In this document: positions 12,871-29,030 of the stretch, one piece after another
How positions within the stretch are numbered: position 1 is the stretch's first letter
How the letters are laid out: each line of letters begins with the position of its first letter
Source: a bacterium
Lineage (GTDB): Bacteria; Patescibacteriota; Dojkabacteria; JAKAPS01; JAJZLI01
NCBI GenBank assembly: GCA_021816845.1
Contig: JAKAWT010000002.1
Coordinates: 213,329-277,328, forward strand
Length of the DNA stretch: 64,000 bases
Direction: 5' to 3'
Notes under the pieces: generated by a model
Database searches by the model: none
Told to the model about the DNA's origin: nothing
Seen by the model: only the letters and a program-made list of their open reading frames with translations
Program-made: the position numbers and the translations under genes

Positions 12871-13467
12871 ATGAATGATATTAAAATAACTATTAATGTT
12901 TATAATAACAGAGCCAAAGAACTTTCAGATTACTATGATACATATGATAGAAGTGGAGACATAAAAAGAGTCTTTTCATATATTAAAAAACCTAACCCTA
13001 GAGTTTTAGAGATTGGATGTGGAGGAGGTAGAGATGCAGTAGAAATATTAAAATATACAAAAGATTATATTGGAATGGATATATCATCAAATATGTTAGA
13101 TTTAGCTAAATCTAGACTACCTAATGCTGTATTTGAACTTGGAGATATAAACACTTACAATCTACCTTTAAATATAGATATTATTTATTCATCAGCATCA
13201 CTACTGCATTCCAATAAGAATGTAGTTAAAAACGTATTAAAACGTTGTCATCGTGTACTTAATATTGATGGTATTGTATATATATCTTTAAAATATGGTA
13301 CTTATAAAAAAATAATAAAGAAAGATAGGTTTGGAGAAAGACTATTTTATTTGTATACCCCAGAGGATATTAAAAAATTAGCATTGAGTATGTATCAGGC
13401 TATTTATGAAGATACACAAACCATAGAACACACAAAATGGTTCACACTCGTACTTAGAAAGGTATAA
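12871..13467 (+). CDS. class I SAM-dependent methyltransferase
   Basis: Motif I VLEIGCGGGRD, motif II-like region, 198 aa. Confidence 0.7.
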   Translation: MNDIKITINVYNNRAKELSDYYDTYDRSGDIKRVFSYIKKPNPRVLEIGCGGGRDAVEILKYTKDYIGMDISSNMLDLAKSRLPNAVFELGDINTYNLPLNIDIIYSSASLLHSNKNVVKNVLKRCHRVLNIDGIVYISLKYGTYKKIIKKDRFGERLFYLYTPEDIKKLALSMYQAIYEDTQTIEHTKWFTLVLRKV

Positions 13468-13572
13468 AATAATATTTTAAAAATCCTTATATTTAACTTC
13501 TCTGTATGAATAAATATAACAAACAACTCACATCGCTTTGAAACGAGTGAGCTGTTTATTTAAAAGTACTGA

Positions 13573-15479: not shown

Positions 15480-16208
15480 CTAACGTTTTTTGAAATTATT
15501 ATAGATATAGTTTTTAATTAATTTTTCTAAATCCATTATTTCATTATTTTTTAGGCATTTTTTTAAATCATCTAAAAAATCCTTATCATATCTCTTAATA
15601 TAGTAATCATGTTGAAATTTGTGATTATATAAAAATTTGTATCTTTTATCTTCATGTGAGAAAGGAATTTCTTCTCCATATATTTTACAATACATTGGAA
15701 GAATATTCCAATATATTATACTTATATACATACCTTTATAGTTAGGATTATCTTGGTAATATTTTTTCATAAGATTCATTTTTTTATATAGATACTTATA
15801 TTCTATCTCCTTAATCTCTCTTTTTACAAAATTTTCTTGTATATGCACACTACTTTTATCTTTCAAATCTTTAATAATATTTTTATTATCTTTAACTATT
15901 TCTCCTATATAGAACATTCTTGATGTCACTTTAGTATTACAATTATAATCTTTAGCAAATCGATCCTGAACACCTTTAGTAGTAGATATAAATAAATCTA
16001 TATTCAATTTTCGATTTTTAATATGAGTAAAAAAATTATATTTGTGATTATCTGTAATAATTATAATATCTATATCTGATCCTTTCGTATTTAATCCCAA
16101 AACATAGCTACCAGTAATAATATATCCAATCAATGGAAATATTTCATACTCAGATCCATTATTATTAATAAAATTTTCAATTTTTTTATAGGGAATATTC
16201 TTTTTCAA
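15480..16208 (-). CDS. Pol-beta-superfamily nucleotidyltransferase (KNTase/Lnu-like) with C-terminal helical domain
   Basis: GSYVLGLNTKGSDIDIIIIT = G[GS]-x9-13-DhD signature; 242 aa; extremely Lys/Asn/Ile/Tyr-rich. Confidence 0.55.
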   Translation of the reverse strand: MKKNIPYKKIENFINNNGSEYEIFPLIGYIITGSYVLGLNTKGSDIDIIIITDNHKYNFFTHIKNRKLNIDLFISTTKGVQDRFAKDYNCNTKVTSRMFYIGEIVKDNKNIIKDLKDKSSVHIQENFVKREIKEIEYKYLYKKMNLMKKYYQDNPNYKGMYISIIYWNILPMYCKIYGEEIPFSHEDKRYKFLYNHKFQHDYYIKRYDKDFLDDLKKCLKNNEIMDLEKLIKNYIYNNFKKR

Positions 16209-16214
16209 TATAAA

Positions 16215-17339
16215 CTATATGTTAAAAGTATATTTATCTATTTTGGATTTATCACCTTGTGCTATTTTATAATAATTCCCATAGTGTTTATTTGAACTTA
16301 ATGTCTTTTGTAAATACTCTTTCATTTTCAAAAGATAATTATTTGCTTGTGCTTGATCTTTTGATAATTGTGCTTGAGCATTACTCAGAGTATTTTGATC
16401 TCTATTTACAGTTGCTTGATCATCTTGTACATTTAATTGATCTTGCTTTATAGTCCCTGCTTCCAATGAAGCACCAACACTATATCCTAATTCATTTATA
16501 TATGCATTATTTTGTGCCTCATCTACTTGTAGTTGATTCTGATCTGTTTGTAATTGACTTTGATCAGTACTTAACTGACTCTGATCTGAGCTAACATTAC
16601 TTCTATCATTAGGAATTGTCGTTTCTTCTATAGGGAGTGCTTGAATTAATTCATTCATTCCAAACAAGTAATATACACATTCATTTTGCAAATTATTTAT
16701 AAGAAATTTTAGATTACTATTTATATTAGGACTATAATAACTTTTAGGATAATTCCTCAGAGTATTAATATTTGTATTATCACAATTATTTTCAAAATAA
16801 TTCATAGAATTTCCTATATATGAGCTTAATTGACTATTTGTCATAGTATCACTTTTAGAAAAAATTCTACTATTGATAGTGACTATATGGCTGTCTATAG
16901 AATGTATATTTGAGAGTAGATTATCGTATTTAGACACTTTATTTTGATAACTTAAATATGGAAGTAATACAAAATACCCTAATAAAGCTAAAATCACTAA
17001 TAGAACTATTAATATAGAAATACTTTTCTTATTAATTAATCGTTTAGGATTAAACTTTTGTCTATTTGTTATTTTTGATTTTACTATATTAAAATTTCTA
17101 AGTTCTGTTGTTATATATTTTTTATATTCCTTATTATATTCAATTCTTTGAATAGGATTACTTAATACTTCGTATGCCTCATTAATATCTTTCATTTTTT
17201 CTTCAATTTTAAGATCCTCTCTTACTTTGTCTGGATGATATTTACTAATTAAATCCTTATATGATTCTTTTATTTCTTCTGATGAAGAGTTAATAGAAAC
17301 TCTTAAGATATTATAATAATCTTTAAATTTGTCATTCAT
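16215..17339 (-). CDS. J-domain (DnaJ-like) membrane protein with C-terminal coiled-coil/Q-rich domain
   Basis: N-terminal J domain DYYNILRV...KYHPDK (HPD motif), one TM helix, DQSQL repeats near the C-terminus. Confidence 0.6.
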   Translation of the reverse strand: MNDKFKDYYNILRVSINSSSEEIKESYKDLISKYHPDKVREDLKIEEKMKDINEAYEVLSNPIQRIEYNKEYKKYITTELRNFNIVKSKITNRQKFNPKRLINKKSISILIVLLVILALLGYFVLLPYLSYQNKVSKYDNLLSNIHSIDSHIVTINSRIFSKSDTMTNSQLSSYIGNSMNYFENNCDNTNINTLRNYPKSYYSPNINSNLKFLINNLQNECVYYLFGMNELIQALPIEETTIPNDRSNVSSDQSQLSTDQSQLQTDQNQLQVDEAQNNAYINELGYSVGASLEAGTIKQDQLNVQDDQATVNRDQNTLSNAQAQLSKDQAQANNYLLKMKEYLQKTLSSNKHYGNYYKIAQGDKSKIDKYTFNI

Positions 17340-17365
17340 AACATATATAAAAATATTCCCTAGAT

Positions 17366-19177
17366 TTATTGTATAGCAGTAGGTGTAGCAACTCCTGCAA
17401 TACTACCTAAGAAATTTGCGTCTCCAAATGTATATACTCCTCCATCTGCTGTTACCATATAATAACCTAACCCATCTATTGATAATTTAAATGCAACTGG
17501 TGTTCTTACTGGTGGATTTGTTATATTAAACATTGATCCATAGAATTGAGCATCTCCAAACGTATATACCCCTCCATCTGCTGTTACCATATAATACCCA
17601 TTCCCATCATTTGTTACAGCAAATGCTACCGTAGTCTTTACTGGGGCATTTGGTATATTATATGTAGATCCATGAAATTGAGCATCTCCAAATGTATATA
17701 CTGCTCCATTCTGAGTTACTATGTAATATCCACCCCCATCTGGTGTTACTCCAAATGCCACAGGTGTTTTATCAGGTATGGCTGATTGGGGTATGTTAAA
17801 TAACGATCCATGGAATACTGCATCTCCAAATGTATATACACCCCCATCTGCAGTAAGAACATAATATCCATTACCATCTGGAGTGGCCACAATAGCCACG
17901 GGAGTCTTCACTGGAGCGTTTGGAATATTATATACTGATCCATAGAATTGAGCATTTCCAAATGTATATATTCCCCCATCTGAAGTTAGAATGTAGTACC
18001 CAGTATCAGTTGGATTTTCAGCAAATCCCACACCTTGCTTCGAAGGTACACCATTAGGAATATTACTCATATCTCCATAATTATTAGTTCCAAAATTGTA
18101 TAAATTACCGGTTAAAGATAATATTGAATAACCATCACGTAATTGAGATACATATACAGCATTAGAGTATGAATAAGATGTTCCAATTGTGTTGTTACAT
18201 TGGGCAGAATCATATGTTCCACCTCCTAATATATATGCAATATTATTATATGTAGCAACACTCTCACCTGAAATTCCAACAAATGCACAAGTAGAATTTG
18301 ATTGAGAATAATAATTCCAAGTTCCTAATGTTCCATTAGAATTTATATTAGAATAAACCATTCCAGTATTTCCTCCTATGCCATAAATATATCCATTAAT
18401 AATGAAATAATTTGATGGGTATATCCAATCTGAATAACTATTACTTGGATAAAAATGGTTTGTAGAGTTCCATACACCTAATGTACCATTACTCTGTATT
18501 TGCGAGTAATATATACTTAATTGTGAAGGGATAGTCCCTGTATAAATATAATATATATCCCCATTATATGCTAAAGACACTGCATCATAATCATCTACAG
18601 GAAGAGAAGTAGTAGAGTTCCATACACCTAATGTACCATTACTCTGTATTTGAGAATAATATACTGTATTTAGATAATTGTAATTTAAAGTTCCATTTAT
18701 TTGATTGTATCCACCAAGTTTATATATATATCCACCATAAGCCGCTATACTAGGATTATTAATATTTTGTGAAATAGATGATGTGGAATTCCAAATACTA
18801 AGTGTACCATTACTTTGTATTTGCGAGTAATATACTGTATTTCCTAATAAATATATATATCCATTAGACTCAACAGCTAAATTACTAACATTATTGGGTA
18901 TAGAAGTAGTAGAATTCCAATTTCCCAAAGTATGATTGCTTTGTATTCGGGCATAGTAAACTGAGTTTACACTATTTGGCATTCCATTTATTAATATATT
19001 CCCTCCTACTTCGTAAATATACCCATTATAAGTTATAGAAGAAGAATTACTAATTTCTTGAGGTAGAGAAGTTGTATTTTTCCAATTTAGATAATGAGCA
19101 TAGGATCCATGTGAAAAAATAAAACCATAAATTAGTAATAAAGCAAAAGAAAAAAATATATTTTTTATAAATTTCAC
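17366..19177 (-). CDS. secreted beta-propeller-like repeat protein (Kelch-like N-terminal repeats plus 5 C-terminal GYYxLTxDGGVYTFGNAQF repeats)
   Basis: Signal peptide; repeated YYSQIQSNGTLGxWNSTTS blades; C-terminal 47-aa repeats paralogous to the 1..1271 protein. Confidence 0.6.
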   Translation of the reverse strand: MKFIKNIFFSFALLLIYGFIFSHGSYAHYLNWKNTTSLPQEISNSSSITYNGYIYEVGGNILINGMPNSVNSVYYARIQSNHTLGNWNSTTSIPNNVSNLAVESNGYIYLLGNTVYYSQIQSNGTLSIWNSTSSISQNINNPSIAAYGGYIYKLGGYNQINGTLNYNYLNTVYYSQIQSNGTLGVWNSTTSLPVDDYDAVSLAYNGDIYYIYTGTIPSQLSIYYSQIQSNGTLGVWNSTNHFYPSNSYSDWIYPSNYFIINGYIYGIGGNTGMVYSNINSNGTLGTWNYYSQSNSTCAFVGISGESVATYNNIAYILGGGTYDSAQCNNTIGTSYSYSNAVYVSQLRDGYSILSLTGNLYNFGTNNYGDMSNIPNGVPSKQGVGFAENPTDTGYYILTSDGGIYTFGNAQFYGSVYNIPNAPVKTPVAIVATPDGNGYYVLTADGGVYTFGDAVFHGSLFNIPQSAIPDKTPVAFGVTPDGGGYYIVTQNGAVYTFGDAQFHGSTYNIPNAPVKTTVAFAVTNDGNGYYMVTADGGVYTFGDAQFYGSMFNITNPPVRTPVAFKLSIDGLGYYMVTADGGVYTFGDANFLGSIAGVATPTAIQ

Positions 19178-19350: not shown

Positions 19351-22104
19351 TTATACGAGTTTTCTTGAATTTAATCTCATATTTACCAACTGTAATAAAG
19401 AATTAATAACATCTCTTTTTATGCCTGATAAACCATAACATCTTAGTACTACGTCTTCAAATTCTATTCTATCTTTTTGAACTAATTCTTTAGTTATAGG
19501 AAAAACTTCTCTTTCTAATAATGGTTGAAATTTATTTAGTATTAAATTCTTTTGTCCATTTGATAAAAATAAAGGGTTTAAAATCATTAGATTCTTTTCT
19601 ATATTATCTTTATTCAAATCTAATACACTATCACCTCTTCCAAAACCTAAAGCTTCTATATAGAATATAGTCAAAAATGAATTCAATAAAGCATGGAGTA
19701 TATCTTTTTCAACATTTTGATGTTTCAGAGAAAATCCAATTAACCTTTGATTAATAAAAGAAGGATTATTCATTCTGGGAATAAAAATTCTTTCTGAAGG
19801 ATTCAAACTCATTGTAAAATCAGCTTTTTTATCCAAACTCATTGAATACCAAAATTTGTTACCTTTACCTAAAATCTGATTTAAAGGTTTTCCTTTTGTA
19901 TTGCTTAGATTTTCAAAAGATTTAATCCACTCTATAGCTCCGAAATGATTTAGTTTTTCTAAATCATTAATAGATAAAATACATGAAAATGCTCTTCCAT
20001 TAGCTTCTGTTGTAAGAGTCTTTACGGATTTTAAATTTTTTAAAAAAGGTTTGAGATATATTTTTTCTATATGATTATTTACTTCAGGATAAAATAATTT
20101 ATCCCATCCTCTTCTTTCTCCTCTATTAATGTCAAAAAATTGATTAACATTTATAACTTTATTCTCTAGTTTCATAACCCATGAGCAATCCGAGAATAAT
20201 CCATTACCACCAATACCATATTGACTTAAAATTTTTAAATCTTTATCTTTATAAGATTTCAAATATAATTCTTCATTATTTAAAAATTCATACTTATAAA
20301 TACTGCTAACAATATATTCAAAGTTATTTGATTTCTCTATATCGCCTTTTAATGTAACATATTTAGTCAAGTTTACATCTTTGTTTTTATTATTAATTTT
20401 TCTTAATATCATTATATTAGTTATAATTTTTACATCTTTAAACCATCTTCTAGAACCTGAAGTTATAACTATATCAATATGAAAGATTTTCCTTAAAGAA
20501 CTAATGAAATTCTTTCCCCATTTTGTTGATTGCCAAGAATTTGATATTATTAAACCTAAAACTCCATCTTTTGATAAGAATTTAACAAAATAAAAAGGTA
20601 AAAATGAATAGAAATCTCCTTTATTATTTAATTGTAAATCAATATTCAATTCTAATCTAATATATTCTCTTATTTCTTTTGCAATATTGGGATATAAAAT
20701 TGAATAAGTTTCTGATTTTATAAAAGGTAAATTTGAAACTACATAATCCATTAATGGCAAGCTAACTTTATAAATATCTCCAGAATAAGATTTATGAATA
20801 TTAATTAACATTCCCGCTTTGATATCAAGAACATCATCTTTGAATATATAAAATTTTTGTTCTTTATTCTCAGGATTAGCAATAGAAAAAGTAGCTAATT
20901 GTAAAGGAAATCCAAATTTATCACTTCCCCATGTAGATGAATAGATTTCTGATATCTTTAATTTATCATCTTCTTTTTTTAAATTAATAATCTCCCTTAG
21001 TATAGTTCCGGTACCACAACATGGGTCAATAACATTGGAATTTTTATTTCTTATAGTTAATTTAACTAAAAATTTTGATAAATATTGAGGTGTAGTAAAC
21101 TGACCTGCAATTTTTCTTTTACTTTTAATGACTAAATTATCTATCAATTCTTGAATAAAATCTTGAGTCATTTCTTGAATATTAGAATCTATTAATAAAT
21201 TATTGAATTCCAATATATTCTCCCAAAATTTATTAGGAATAATATCATCACCTAATTGTCTTACAAAAATATTCCAAAAATCTAATTTTTTAGATATATT
21301 TTCAAAGAATTCTAAAGAACACTTGATTTTATCAATAGTATTAAATTTATCTATTTCATTCGCGTTCATATTAAATTTCTTTATTAAATGTATGAATAGA
21401 AATTTGTTTATTACTGTTAAAAGATTTATTTTTGCAAGTACTATATATTTATCCTCTGTAGGGTATTCATACTGATTAGATTTCCACCAAATATTGATAT
21501 CATCACTAAATTCTGGATATTCATTACTTTTATCTTTAATATTATTAGAATAACTTTCTATATTGTTTTTTATTAAACTATCAATACCAAAAATAGATAT
21601 TGAATCAACTAGTGTTGTACTCTTAATACTTCCATTACTAAAATATATTACTAAATCTTCTAATATCTTATCTAATAAAATATAAATACTGTCTATTTGT
21701 TCAAAAACCTCTTCTCGTGTCTGAATTGTAGAAAGGTCTCTCCATTCTGATAAAATTTCTAAATCTTCATGATTATTAATAGTATATAACCTTGCATATT
21801 TAATATTCCATAATAAGAAACTCTTTAATCCTAAACTATCTGCTTTTTCTTTTGCATTTAAAATAAATTTTGAATCATTTATATCTGTATCAGGTAATTT
21901 GATTTCCCATCCTTGTAGATATGCTCCGGATGTTGAATCTGAATATAAAATTATGTCTGGGAAAAGTTTATTTTGATTTTGATTTGTAATTGTTATCTCA
22001 CCACCAGCTCTCTTTATAATTACATTCCTATTATTAGCCCAATTATTAATATATGAAATTAAATCAATACTTAAACTACGTTCATTTTCTTTAATATTTA
22101 TCAT
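19351..22104 (-). CDS. Type IIG restriction-modification enzyme (Eco57I/MmeI-like: N-terminal PD-ExK nuclease, central gamma-class N6-adenine methyltransferase, C-terminal TRD)
   Basis: N-terminal FPDIILYSD...GWEIK (D...ExK); MTase motif I DPCCGTGTIL followed by motif IV VVSNLPF (gamma order); 917 aa; 9 nt downstream of a separate MTase. Confidence 0.65.
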   Translation of the reverse strand: MINIKENERSLSIDLISYINNWANNRNVIIKRAGGEITITNQNQNKLFPDIILYSDSTSGAYLQGWEIKLPDTDINDSKFILNAKEKADSLGLKSFLLWNIKYARLYTINNHEDLEILSEWRDLSTIQTREEVFEQIDSIYILLDKILEDLVIYFSNGSIKSTTLVDSISIFGIDSLIKNNIESYSNNIKDKSNEYPEFSDDINIWWKSNQYEYPTEDKYIVLAKINLLTVINKFLFIHLIKKFNMNANEIDKFNTIDKIKCSLEFFENISKKLDFWNIFVRQLGDDIIPNKFWENILEFNNLLIDSNIQEMTQDFIQELIDNLVIKSKRKIAGQFTTPQYLSKFLVKLTIRNKNSNVIDPCCGTGTILREIINLKKEDDKLKISEIYSSTWGSDKFGFPLQLATFSIANPENKEQKFYIFKDDVLDIKAGMLINIHKSYSGDIYKVSLPLMDYVVSNLPFIKSETYSILYPNIAKEIREYIRLELNIDLQLNNKGDFYSFLPFYFVKFLSKDGVLGLIISNSWQSTKWGKNFISSLRKIFHIDIVITSGSRRWFKDVKIITNIMILRKINNKNKDVNLTKYVTLKGDIEKSNNFEYIVSSIYKYEFLNNEELYLKSYKDKDLKILSQYGIGGNGLFSDCSWVMKLENKVINVNQFFDINRGERRGWDKLFYPEVNNHIEKIYLKPFLKNLKSVKTLTTEANGRAFSCILSINDLEKLNHFGAIEWIKSFENLSNTKGKPLNQILGKGNKFWYSMSLDKKADFTMSLNPSERIFIPRMNNPSFINQRLIGFSLKHQNVEKDILHALLNSFLTIFYIEALGFGRGDSVLDLNKDNIEKNLMILNPLFLSNGQKNLILNKFQPLLEREVFPITKELVQKDRIEFEDVVLRCYGLSGIKRDVINSLLQLVNMRLNSRKLV

Positions 22105-22112
22105 TCTTAATT

Positions 22113-22919
22113 TTATAAATCAAAAGAATTAAAAAATCCTAGGCTTTTTTTTGCAGCTTCAATCCTTTTGATAGATATATCTATTAAATTTACTTTATTT
22201 TTTTTATGCAAAAGAGTATCTTCATTTTTTTCTATTCCTATAAAGTTTCTATTCTCTAATACAGCACTAACAAGAAAACTTCCACTACCAGAAGTATTAT
22301 CTAAAACAGTATCTCCTTCATTTGTATATGTTCTTATAATATATCTTCCTAATTCCACTGGTTTTTGAGTCGGATGATATACTTTTCCTTCACTTTCAGC
22401 TGTTTTAAAATATATAACATCGCTAGGATATCTTTGTCCATCACTTTGAATTTGTATAGAATTAAAATCCCCGTAACTCCCTGTTAATTGGTCTTTTCTA
22501 ACTCCTTTATCATATGGAACTCCTTCATTCATTTGAGGATTATAAATAGGTTGATTTTTATAGAATATGCAAATATCTTCATGTTTTCTTAACGGCTGTT
22601 TTTTTGCATTTAAAAAGTTTGTTGATTTTGATTTAACCCAAATCAGTTTATATTTAAACAGTTTTTTATTACTCATAATTAATTCTGCACTAAATGCTCC
22701 TTGAGAAGAAAGTGCTATAACTCCATTATCTTTAATTATCCGTTCATATTGTTCCCATAGTTTATCCAAAGGAATAACACTATCCCATATATTCTGTGTT
22801 GTACCATAAGGCAAATCACATAATATTAAATCAATAGACTTGCTATCAATGAAAGGTAAAACCTTTAAACAGTCATTTTCTATAACTTTATTTAAAAATT
22901 CTGTATTAAATTTAGACAT
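22113..22919 (-). CDS. DNA methyltransferase, beta-class (N6-adenine or N4-cytosine), companion to the Type IIG enzyme
   Basis: Motif IV LILCDLPYG preceding motif I DNTSGSGSF (beta-class order); 268 aa. Confidence 0.7.
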   Translation of the reverse strand: MSKFNTEFLNKVIENDCLKVLPFIDSKSIDLILCDLPYGTTQNIWDSVIPLDKLWEQYERIIKDNGVIALSSQGAFSAELIMSNKKLFKYKLIWVKSKSTNFLNAKKQPLRKHEDICIFYKNQPIYNPQMNEGVPYDKGVRKDQLTGSYGDFNSIQIQSDGQRYPSDVIYFKTAESEGKVYHPTQKPVELGRYIIRTYTNEGDTVLDNTSGSGSFLVSAVLENRNFIGIEKNEDTLLHKKNKVNLIDISIKRIEAAKKSLGFFNSFDL

Positions 22920-23359
22920 AATTAAAAGTATATTTATACTTCATCATTATAAACTTTTTGCTTTCTGAAAGGAATTGTTTATATTAATTAAATCATCATA
23001 TATCTTACTAGAGCTTAAATAGTGTTTTATTTTCAAAGATTTTATCAATTGTATATTTAATACAATTATCTTGTCAAATTCCCATCTATAATACCAATTT
23101 TTTTCAGAATAAACTTATGGGGACTGTGGACGATATTCGAACCCTTATTTCAAATAATTTAATTCTTAATATATTTACATAAATTATCTCTTCTTCTAGT
23201 GTAACGAGAACTAAGTCTCTATGAAGAAGAAGTAATTTATTTTTAATAATAAAAAATGAATATATCTAATTATGGTATAATATTTATATAATAATAAATA
23301 TAAATGAATTAAAATAAAAATTCAGGATTAAACTCTTCAGAAGATTATAATGGAAATTT

Positions 23360-23435
23360 AGTATTTATGAAGATACGAGCACCAAAGGACATACAAAATG
23401 GTGTGCACTTGTGCTTAGAAAGTTATAAAATAACA
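23360..23435 (+). pseudogene. remnant copy of the 3' end of the SAM-methyltransferase gene (12871..13467)
   Basis: tttatgaagatac...caaaatggt.cac..gt.cttagaaag.tataaaataa aligns with 13404..13478 at about 75% identity, including the stop codon. Confidence 0.45.
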
Positions 23436-23460
23436 TTATAATATTTATTAGAATAATAGA

Positions 23461-23770
23461 ATGACTAAAAAAGATATTTCAGAGGGGGTAGTACACAAAG
23501 TTCCCCCAGATTTAAAAGAAGCTTTGATTTCTGATTCACAAACTCTAGAAATATGGGAAAGTCTTACTCCTCTTGCACGTAATGAATGGATCTGCTGGAC
23601 TACCTTTGTTTAAAAAACCAGAAACCAGAAAGCAGCATGTTAAAAGGGTTATTACAGAACTTAAAGAAGGCATGCGTAGACCTTGTTGTTGGATAGGCTG
23701 TATACATCGTCTTGATAAACCTGTAAGCCCTTCTATACAACATATTATTAATAAATCTCATATTATCTAA
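23461..23770 (+). pseudogene. frameshifted YdeI/OmpD-associated (DUF1905/PF13376-like) gene
   Basis: Frame 1 encodes MTKKDISEGVVHKVPPDLKEALISDSQTLEIWESLTPLARNEWICWTT then stops. Frame 2 continues KKPETRKQHVKRVITELKEGMRRP. The shift occurs at an A6 homopolymer near 23616. Confidence 0.5.
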
Positions 23771-23845: not shown

Positions 23846-24067
23846 ATGAGAAAATCATACAAATCATGGACAATATATAGTATTGGACTTTTTATGGCTT
23901 GGGGAATTATTTTTCTTATCAGATGGAGACTTAAATCCTATCCAAGCCTACAAGATTTAGCCTTAGTATTCTTTGGTTATTTTATAGGATGGTTATCAGC
24001 AACTATAAAATTTGTTCTGGTTAGTAATAAAATTTATGGTATCGTATCTTTTAAACCAGACAAATAA
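23846..24067 (+). CDS. small 2-TM membrane protein (hypothetical)
   Basis: 73 aa, two hydrophobic helices. Confidence 0.3.
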   Translation: MRKSYKSWTIYSIGLFMAWGIIFLIRWRLKSYPSLQDLALVFFGYFIGWLSATIKFVLVSNKIYGIVSFKPDK

Positions 24068-24359
24068 TATTGTAAGTTGGTACTTTTTTAATAGATTCCA
24101 TTTTAATACAATAATTTAGATATTAGTAAAATTTCATGTTAACATTAAAATTAATAAAAGAGCAATTGAAAAGTTCTAGAGAGATTTTTGAAGGAGAAAT
24201 TGCAACTCTGCCTCAATATATTACTGGTATTTTAAGCATTTTAGTCTTTATTACCTCAATACAGCAATTACTGAAAGATTTTGCAATAAATAAAAGGGTA
24301 TCATAAAAAGACTGTGTAATTCAAAAAATAAATAACAGATAATTAAAACTTAGGAAGTT

Positions 24360-27864: not shown

Positions 27865-28392
27865 TTAATCAATAGTCTTTATTATACAATTTTTTAAGTA
27901 AATTGTAGAACCAGATACTTTTTCTATTATTCCCCTAACCATAAGGTGGTCATAACGATTCATTCTATTCAAAAAATTATACATATTCTTTTGTACTGAA
28001 AAACATACATAACAACTAAACTTGTCTAAAGATACAGTAAAAACATTTGACCTATCATTATCAAAAGTATCATCATTTAAACTAAACAATTTGACTTCCC
28101 ATGTAATTTTATAATCTATATATCCACTAGCAATAATTTTTTGGGCTGATAAAGGATGATTATCAATATCATTTATAATATCCCTAGGAGATTTTTTAGA
28201 TAAAGTAAATTTTTTAAATTTTTCTTTATTTGTAGTTATACTTCCATTGTTTTCAATTTGATTTTGATGCTGTATTTTATTATCTTTACTTCTATCTTTA
28301 CCTATGCCAAAACCATAATACAAGATTAAGCCTGCAATTACAGTACCTCCTATTCCTATAACCCATGGATTATTCATTAATATATTTATCAT
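27865..28392 (-). CDS. membrane-anchored hypothetical protein
   Basis: Real start placed at MINILMNNPWV (28392). The upstream part of ORF 27865..28707 is an artefact that reads through tRNA-Gln/Gly/Phe. Confidence 0.45.
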   Translation of the reverse strand: MINILMNNPWVIGIGGTVIAGLILYYGFGIGKDRSKDNKIQHQNQIENNGSITTNKEKFKKFTLSKKSPRDIINDIDNHPLSAQKIIASGYIDYKITWEVKLFSLNDDTFDNDRSNVFTVSLDKFSCYVCFSVQKNMYNFLNRMNRYDHLMVRGIIEKVSGSTIYLKNCIIKTID

Positions 28393-28413
28393 AGTAATAA
28401 AAATAATAAAGCA

Positions 28414-28484
28414 CTGGGATGCAGGGATTCGAACCCCAAACTTCAGGACCAAAACCTGGCGTGATGCCATTTCACCACATCCCA
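28414..28484 (-). tRNA. tRNA-Gln(TTG)
   Basis: Acceptor TGGGATG/CATCCCA, anticodon loop TTTTGGT, T-loop GGTTCGAATCC; no encoded CCA. Confidence 0.75.
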
Positions 28485-28493
28485 AAATAAATA

Positions 28494-28566
28494 AGCGGAA
28501 GACGGGGTTCAAACCCGCGACCTTATCCTTGGCAAGGATACGCTCTATCAACTGAGCTACTTCCGC
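28494..28566 (-). tRNA. tRNA-Gly(GCC)
   Basis: Acceptor GCGGAAG/CTTCCGC, anticodon stem TATCC/GGATA with loop TTGCCAA, T-loop GGTTTGAACCC. Confidence 0.8.
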
Positions 28567-28571
28567 AGATA

Positions 28572-28644
28572 TGCCACAGGTGGGGCTCGGACCCACGACA
28601 CAAGGCTCTTCAGGCCTCTGCTCTACCAGCTGAGCTACCGTGGC
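28572..28644 (-). tRNA. tRNA-Phe(GAA)
   Basis: Acceptor GCCACGG/CTGTGGC, D-arm AGCTCAGCTGGTAGAGC, anticodon loop CTGAAGA. Confidence 0.8.
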
Positions 28645-28709
28645 ATAAAACATTAAGAGTATACCAAATTTTTTTAATATTGAAAATTTATTTAATGGAG
28701 AAAACACAT

Positions 28710-28782
28710 TGGGTGGTACAGGGATCGGACCTGTGACATCTACGGTGTAAACGTAGCGCTCTACCAGCTGAGCTAACCACCC
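28710..28782 (-). tRNA. tRNA-Val(TAC)
   Basis: Acceptor GGGTGGT/ACCACCC, anticodon stem CTACG/CGTAG with loop TTTACAC. Confidence 0.8.
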
Positions 28783-28797
28783 AAATTAAATCTACAA

Positions 28798-28886
28798 TGG
28801 GCAGAAGAGGACTTGAACCTCCATGCCACTAAATAAGGGGCACAACCACCTCAAGGTTGCGTGTCTACCGATTCCACCATCTGCCC
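28798..28886 (-). tRNA. tRNA-Leu(GAG)
   Basis: Acceptor GGGCAGA/TCTGCCC, long variable arm, anticodon stem CAACC/GGTTG with loop TTGAGGT. Confidence 0.75.
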
Positions 28887-28947
28887 AAAATCTATATTAA
28901 AGACACAGGCATATTATATTTAAAAAAAACAAATTTTGCAATGAATT

Positions 28948-29029
28948 TGCCAGAGAGAGGACTTGAACCTCCAAATCTTTCGATACAGCGTTCTGAACAC
29001 TGCGTGTATACCAATTTCACCACTCTGGC
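28948..29029 (-). tRNA. tRNA-Leu(CAG)
   Basis: Acceptor GCCAGAG/CTCTGGC, long variable arm, anticodon stem CAGTG/CGCTG with loop TTCAGAA. Confidence 0.7.
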
Positions 29030-29030
29030 A

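Follow-up and report, generated by a model that had tools for sequence, protein, structure and literature searches.

The 64-kb stretch of contig JAKAWT010000002.1 analyzed here (the window, meaning this DNA at its full length) very probably carries an intact two-gene Type IIG restriction-modification operon of the BseMII-like family. The operon comprises a gene for a protein of 917 amino acids (aa), in which a PD-(D/E)XK nuclease, a gamma-class adenine methylase and a target-recognition region are joined in one chain, and a gene for a 268-aa beta-class methyltransferase. Both open reading frames (ORFs) were found on the minus strand at the coordinates that a first-pass annotation of this DNA had given them; the gap between them, which it had put at 9 nucleotides (nt), measures 8 nt from the methylase stop codon to the start codon of the large gene. 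So short a spacer implies a single transcript. The combination of a fused enzyme with a separate beta-class methyltransferase points to one of those Type IIG systems that require a second methylase. The kind of system is already well understood, and a defence-system database models the family from end to end; the 917-aa protein itself is a divergent, uncharacterised addition to a populous family.

The identity of the large protein is carried by a full-length profile match and by the motifs that this match contains. The PADLOC model PDLC03606 (REase_MTase_IIG) aligns with residues 4-912 over profile positions 7-930 of 935 (E 3.4e-274); the matches of other PADLOC models for Type IIG enzymes and for Type I and Type II methylases are weak and cover only the core responsible for binding S-adenosylmethionine (SAM) and for catalysis. 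Pfam N6_Mtase is matched at residues 327-581 (E 3.6e-16), and UPF0020 weakly (E <= 0.01). The PD pair of the nuclease lies at residues 49-50 and the EIK at 67-69, with 16 residues between D50 and E67, and the DPCCGTGTIL of the methylase at residue 360 stands ahead of NLPF at residue 458. All of the motifs that the first-pass annotation had named (PD-x16-EIK, DPCCGTGTIL, NLPF and, in the companion, DLPYG and SGSGSF) are present where it had put them. In an alignment of 42 family members, P49, D50, E67, K69, D360, P361, C363, G364, G366, T367 and N458-L459-P460-F461 are invariant, so that the PD-ExK residues are retained on alignment as well as by motif. Taken together, the full-length PADLOC match and the invariance of these residues in 42 homologues argue that the motifs are not the product of chance; and, because the 917-aa protein keeps each of them, its nuclease, SAM-binding and catalytic motifs all appear to be intact.

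A search of 5.8 billion proteins returned more than 500 homologues, all of about 905-932 aa, of which the closest is 42 % identical. Most derive from metagenome bins of Patescibacteria, with others from Bacillaceae (Robertmurraya, Bacillus safensis, Virgibacillus), Bacteroidota and one Altiarchaeia archaeon. When mean identity to the homologues is taken domain by domain, the nuclease is the best conserved at 49 % and the connector the least at 33 %, with the methylase at 40 % and the recognition region at 41 %. These per-domain identities reveal no hypervariable recognition domain, and within that region the sequence RGERRGWD at residue 661 is conserved among homologues.

Structure prediction is in accord with this assignment. 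An AlphaFold model of the 917-aa protein, built from the 42-sequence alignment (mean predicted local distance difference test score 83, predicted template modelling score 0.74), begins with an alpha/beta domain and continues through a long connector of helices to a methylase of Rossmann type and a mixed domain at the C-terminus. The alpha/beta core of the nuclease domain is modelled with strands at residues 51-54, 62-68, 95-99 and 104-109. The top full-length match to the model in the Protein Data Bank (PDB) was the Type IIG enzyme BpuSI (3S1S; Foldseek E 3.4e-23), which belongs to a system of three components (PMC3817140). Next came CamA and M.BseCI, aligned over the methylase and recognition domains with a template modelling score (TM-score) on the target of 0.65-0.70, and further matches were to DrdV, MmeI (E 4e-12) and the BREX protein PglX. 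At the level of sequence, M.BseCI was the sole solved enzyme that the family profile reached, aligning over positions 326-673, and a phmmer search of the 917-aa protein against solved structures returned only a fragment of a Type I methylase and no solved family member. Since no sequence-level match was obtained to them, BpuSI, MmeI and DrdV are related to the large protein by fold only. Motifs, profile matches and predicted structure nevertheless agree on a fused PD-ExK nuclease, gamma-class methyltransferase and recognition domain accompanied by a separate beta-class methyltransferase, the arrangement first proposed for this locus. None of the outcomes that the first-pass annotation had named as contradicting its proposal was observed. 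A BREX (PglX-like) or MADS (Mad2-like) methylase was also considered and set aside: the matches are low-scoring and cover the methylase core only, and the partner genes are absent.

The companion, the 268-aa protein, matches Pfam PF01555 (N6_N4_Mtase) over residues 29-234 (E 4e-27) and the PADLOC MTase_II model PDLC03251 (E 2e-68). Its motif IV (DLPYG, residue 35) is N-terminal and its motif I (SGSGSF, residue 210) is C-terminal, which is the beta-class order. The solved relatives that can be recognized by sequence are M.RsrI, M.MboIIA and CcrM, all of them adenine enzymes; and, because the best NCBIfam and PDB relatives are likewise adenine enzymes, the target of the 268-aa protein is probably N6-adenine rather than N4-cytosine.

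That the two genes belong together is supported by a survey of 14 systems, the window included, in every one of which a companion methylase adjoins the large gene. In 11 of the 14 (the window, four metagenomic or genomic loci and six plasmids) the companion is a beta-class methylase placed directly upstream on the same strand; in one more it is a beta-class methylase lying downstream and convergent. In the remaining two (Bacillus safensis and the Altiarchaeia archaeon) its place is taken by a 660-aa gamma-class methylase, and the family would therefore seem to use two interchangeable companion kinds. These gamma-class companions (L088 7835-9832 in B. safensis and L089 2967-4952 in the archaeon) match Pfam N6_Mtase, MmeI_Mtase, Eco57I and TaqI_C. 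In one candidate-phyla locus (L006 4387-5994) the beta-class companion is fused to an N-terminal RadC/UPF0758 domain, giving a protein of 535 aa whose methylase part is 70 % identical to the companion in the window. In two Patescibacteria loci (L004, 3668-5095; L006, 11439-12938) a DUF2779 gene lies within a few kb of the BseMII-like module; none occurs in the window, and the gene could be a recurrent neighbour of such modules.

The constancy of the pairing bears directly on the notion that the large protein is a solitary MmeI-like (Type IIL) enzyme, protecting its host by single-strand methylation, beside which the 268-aa methylase is merely an unrelated orphan or a phage-derived neighbour. 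Such a notion draws on the length of the large protein, which is about that of MmeI, on the shared domain order, on the presence of MmeI among the structural matches and on the relatives of the companion, which are common as stand-alone phage methylases (346 phage records at 45-54 % identity; phrog_67). It has to accommodate, however, a companion in 14 of 14 systems, which in 11 is of the same beta-class family and in the same position, two genes that in the window are just 8 nt apart, and a large protein with no sequence-level match to MmeI and none to Pfam MmeI_Mtase, for which BpuSI is by far the better structural counterpart. We consider a solitary enzyme extremely improbable and retain the two-gene operon.

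A second question is whether the nuclease of this operon still functions. Were the locus a decayed remnant with a dead nuclease, it would now amount only to a pair of methyltransferases, serving epigenetic regulation and not defence. Its flanks do contain one fragmentary and one frameshifted gene, and the 917-aa protein is the most divergent of the 42 aligned (37-43 % identical to the others, as against per-domain all-pairs means of 39-57 %) and has the highest combined content of asparagine, lysine and isoleucine (N+K+I) in that sample. Against this, both ORFs are full length relative to their profiles, every invariant residue including PD...ExK is kept, the nuclease is the best conserved of the domains and the AlphaFold model is confident. 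A remnant is accordingly very improbable, and the intact operon is the reading that we carry forward.

The first-pass annotation had called the system Eco57I-like. In architecture and mechanism this description stands, but the family name does not, given that Pfam PF07669 (Eco57I) is not reached by the 917-aa protein at E <= 0.01 and that a homologue about 40 % identical to it (P0116) is deposited as 'Restriction endonuclease BseMII'. Homologues from Bacillaceae, 930-932 aa long, share 41-42 % identity with the large protein, and many of its homologues do match PF07669 in the methylase core, often weakly. BseMII is a Type IIG/IIS enzyme (CTCAG 10/8); it makes N6-methyladenine (m6A), needs or is affected by SAM, and its M gene is a separate one (PMC3039593 table 2). 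Its PD-(D/E)XK site closely resembles that of Eco57I (PMC3045609), and a classification of 2008 treats it as its own family, separate from Eco57I (PMC2441816). On the combined strength of the one specific PADLOC model, the failure to reach PF07669, the homologue named by its depositor and the separate listing in the 2008 classification, 'BseMII-like' would seem to be the closer label for the 917-aa protein. It would be a guess to suppose that CTCAG is also the sequence recognized in the window host; CTCAG occurs 44 times in the window against 53 expected, which is no depletion and is uninformative either way.

Several points weigh against reading the locus as an intact operon of this family. 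The closest homologue is just 42 % identical and, as noted, PF07669 is not reached. The family name rests on the annotation of a depositor and on an unnamed REBASE-derived PADLOC cluster. A k-mer avoidance scan of the window found no clearly avoided site, the strongest deficit (GTTAA, z -3.7 among 437 five-mers) failing multiple testing. Finally, activity, cut distance, recognition site and the division of the strands between the two methylases are all features that we infer from relatives.

With these points in mind, a mechanism may be outlined from the behaviour of BseMII, Eco57I and BpuSI. The large enzyme would bind a short asymmetric site through its recognition domain and, when bound to SAM, would methylate one adenine on one strand. 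In the presence of SAM and Mg2+ it would cut both strands of unmodified foreign DNA about one helical turn to one side of the site, at a fixed distance for which the 10/8 of BseMII is the precedent. Methylation of a single strand leaves one daughter duplex bare after replication; hence the companion would modify the other strand, or both, and so keep host DNA safe. With the methylase first in the operon, protection would arise no later than the nuclease does. Among promoter-like sites the best is TTGACA-18-TACAAT on the minus strand (23077-23048), about 130 nt upstream of the methylase start, which agrees with the consensus at 11 of 12 positions; this is no more than an agreement with the consensus, and sites of the kind are in total no more numerous than shuffling predicts.

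Table 1 Coordinates of the module, of the domains of its large protein and of the features upstream, as positions in the window
Feature	Coordinates	Strand	Basis
Type IIG (IIC/IIS) bifunctional restriction-modification enzyme, 917 aa, BseMII-like	19351..22104	-	PADLOC PDLC03606, homologues, AlphaFold/BpuSI
Target-recognition region, C-terminal, aa 601-917	19351..20304	-	structural alignment to CamA / M.BseCI
Gamma-class N6-adenine methyltransferase domain, aa 331-600, motif I at 360, motif IV at 458	20305..21114	-	Pfam N6_Mtase, invariant residues
All-helical connector, aa 126-330	21115..21729	-	AlphaFold secondary structure
PD-(D/E)XK nuclease domain, N-terminal, aa 1-125, P49-D50...E67-I-K69	21730..22104	-	invariant residues, AlphaFold core
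Spacer of 8 nt, methylase stop codon to start codon of large gene	22105..22112	-	direct sequence reading
Companion beta-class DNA methyltransferase, 268 aa	22113..22919	-	Pfam N6_N4_Mtase, PADLOC MTase_II
AT-rich non-coding leader with best promoter-like site	22920..23361		no ORF of >=50 aa
Remnant, 3' end of a class-I SAM methyltransferase paralogue: last 22 codons, stop codon and 22 nt beyond	23362..23450	+	blastn, tblastn
Counterpart of remnant: 3' end of intact 198-aa class-I methyltransferase gene (12871-13467)	13401..13489	+	repeat pair; Pfam Methyltransf_25/11
OmdA/YdeI-family gene split by +1 frameshift at TTTGTTTAAAAAA (23605-23617)	23461..23770	+	two overlapping ORFs, 50 and 65 aa

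How the module reached this genome can be approached through its composition. The large gene has a G+C (GC) content of 23.4 % (z about -2.1) and a third-position GC of 13.5 %, and the small gene 27.0 % (z about -1) and 13.0 %, compared with means and standard deviations (SD) of 30.1 +/- 3.2 % and 17.8 +/- 2.9 % for the genes of the window. The third-position GC of the module is close to that of the host. Both genes had been described in the first pass as markedly rich in Asn, Lys and Ile, which overstates the case for the large gene (N+K+I 31.7 % versus 25.9 +/- 4.5 % for window genes, z about +1.3, a modest excess) and does not hold for the small one (27.2 %, unremarkable). Within the 42-member family sample, on the other hand, the 31.7 % of the large protein is the highest value (23.7 +/- 3.3 %). 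Richness in these residues combined with a host-like third-position GC suggests not a recent arrival but either long residence in an AT-rich genome or a donor of similar composition.

Horizontal acquisition, also part of the first-pass proposal, is plausible, with a modest argument from composition, the GC of the large gene deviating by about 2 SD and that of the small gene by about 1 SD. The family itself is mobile, being patchily distributed across phyla, carried on conjugative and mobilizable plasmids, and found elsewhere beside integrases, resolvases and defence genes. The low GC of the large gene and the homologues on plasmids therefore speak for acquisition, but no integrase accompanies the module and no insertion boundary could be fixed. 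Around the module we found no integrase, no phage structural genes and no tRNA-derived repeats, and in the phage collection no homologue of the large gene. A synteny scan with the Dus protein led to Patescibacteria bins of the Daviesbacteria/Levybacteria kind as the nearest relatives; in the nearest species representative, whose Dus is 75 % identical (L008), the genes downstream of Dus are entirely different. A metagenome scan with the FtsX permease gave relatives at most 71 % identical, in which only the ABC-FtsX pair is kept. It is because the nearest available relatives share no synteny at the locus that the boundary is not fixed. Horizontal transfer at some earlier time is the probable source of the module.

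The region upstream of the companion gene agrees with its first description as AT-rich, non-coding and bordered by damaged genes. The 541 bases at 22920-23460 are 21 % GC and contain no ORF of at least 50 aa; an Rfam scan of the leader gave no credible match, the lone match in the scanned stretch (E 0.8) lying outside the leader at 24255-24310. Within this region is an 89-nt copy of the end of a class-I methyltransferase gene that lies intact elsewhere in the window. The two copies (23362-23450 and 13401-13489) are 79 % identical over 89 nt (blastn E 2e-16), are in direct orientation 9,961 nt apart and share a longest exact core of 15 nt. The remnant still translates to SIYEDTSTKGHTKWCALVLRKL followed by a stop codon in the same place as in the intact gene, with 68 % identity over 22 aa by tblastn. 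Beyond it, the YdeI-like gene is indeed frameshifted: removal of one T from the T-run at 23609-23611 restores a 102-aa protein covering positions 3-60 of 60 of Pfam OmdA (PF13376, E 5e-16). The same split is called in two assemblies, and the frameshift may be a homopolymer error in the underlying reads. The fragment and the frameshifted gene are thus present in the assembled sequence; the local decay that had been read from them is plausible as a history.

The 89-nt repeats may mark an old island boundary or may simply be what is left of a destroyed paralogue. In the former case the module would lie in an integrated island of about 10 kb (13.4-23.45 kb), inserted in the 3' end of the class-I methyltransferase gene; the island would have supplied a substitute 3' end and left the original as the remnant at 23362-23450. 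Precedents for insertion of this kind are e14 and phage 21 at icd in E. coli. In favour, the repeats span precisely the final 22 codons of the gene, its stop codon and a further 22 nt. Of the eight genes that they enclose, four are low in GC (20.6, 24.6, 23.4 and 27.0 % versus a mean of 30.1 %), and in the nearest relative the genes downstream of Dus are altogether different. Yet no integrase, recombinase or phage gene lies between the repeats, their longest exact core is only 15 nt and the third-position GC of the module is host-like. Moreover, an isochorismatase gene inside the interval looks native, its counterpart near Dus in L008 being 80 % identical and that near FtsX in L158 60 % identical, and neither the Dus nor the FtsX scan turned up a genome close enough to offer an empty site. 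We regard an island as unlikely.

The surroundings of the module hold several further genes. Directly downstream, at 15480-19177 on the minus strand, are three co-oriented genes: one for a 242-aa nucleotidyltransferase (PF01909), which at 20.6 % has the lowest GC in the window and weakly matches the PADLOC model PDC-S09; one for a 374-aa DnaJ-domain protein with Gln-rich repeats; and one for a 603-aa RCC1/beta-propeller-like repeat protein with internal DNA repeats at 17390-18032 and 18434-18976. On the other side, two small hydrophobic ORFs of 73 and 56 aa (23846-24306, plus strand) lie between the broken OmdA gene and a MacB/FtsX-ABC transporter pair; both are called as genes in public assemblies, and neither has a Pfam or PHROG match. 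Further along, six tRNA genes (Gln, Gly, Phe, Val, Leu, Leu) are clustered at 28413-29030 on the minus strand; nowhere else in the window did a tRNA-derived repeat turn up. A 280-aa ORF at 27865-28707 overlaps three of these tRNA genes and is therefore at least partly an artefact.

The sole mildly unexpected point in our analysis is the conservation of the companion, which is far better conserved than the cutting enzyme and constitutes a small evolutionary curiosity. The companion of the window is 67-70 % identical to those of four other BseMII-like systems, whose large enzymes are 38-42 % identical to its own; in the plasmid systems the companions are about 60 % identical while the large enzymes are at 27-33 %. 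Across Patescibacteria, Bacteroidota, Bacillota, Proteobacteria and plasmids, then, the companion spans 60-70 % identity and the large enzyme 27-42 % over the same set. It is tempting to speculate that, should the specificities of the large enzymes have drifted apart, the companion might act as a generalist on a short degenerate palindrome that covers many asymmetric sites. One conserved methylase would then protect the hosts of many Type IIG specificities; CTNAG, for example, contains both CTCAG and CTGAG. We hold this to be distinctly improbable. A separate and likewise unlikely possibility is that the module of this Patescibacteria genome occupies a 10-kb island without an integrase, inserted into the 3' end of a protein-coding gene.

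Beyond annotation the locus is of little significance, adding one divergent member (nearest relative 42 % identical) to a well-populated Type IIG family. In small-genome Patescibacteria, the established view is that restriction-modification is used for defence, and the AT-rich genome of this uncultured, Patescibacteria-like organism carries what appears from its sequence to be a functional restriction system. The 917-aa enzyme could offer a new specificity of interest to vendors, and the m6A motif of the module could act as a lineage binning signal in long-read metagenomes.

Comparison with characterised systems places the module as follows. MmeI and the Type IIL enzymes (PDB 5HR4) resemble the large protein in length (about 919 aa for MmeI), in domain order and in structure, and differ in that the family in the window had a companion in every system sampled and gave no MmeI-specific Pfam match, whereas MmeI has no companion methylase (PMC3039593 table 2). 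BpuSI (Type IIS/C/G, GGGAC 10/14) has the same four-part architecture and is the best full-length structural match; it is only 13 % identical in sequence, however, with no match at that level, and a global TM-score of 0.39-0.40 against the model shows that the domains are arranged differently. Two of the three components of the BpuSI system are companion methylases. Enzymes of the Eco57I / AcuI / BpmI group have their domains in the same order and likewise need a second methylase. The Eco57I protein exceeds the window protein by about 80 aa and is partnered by a gamma-class methylase of about 540 aa. The characterised enzyme that stands closest by name is BseMII of Geobacillus stearothermophilus Isl 15-111, in which a single chain likewise combines a nuclease, a gamma-class m6A methylase and a recognition domain and the second methylase has a gene of its own. 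Here specificity may differ, the nearest homologue of any kind being 42 % identical, and the window host is uncultured and Patescibacteria-like with 30 % GC. Lastly, within the family itself, the two sampled members from Bacillus and an archaeon rely on a 660-aa gamma-class companion, while the module described here is paired with a beta-class companion of 268 aa.

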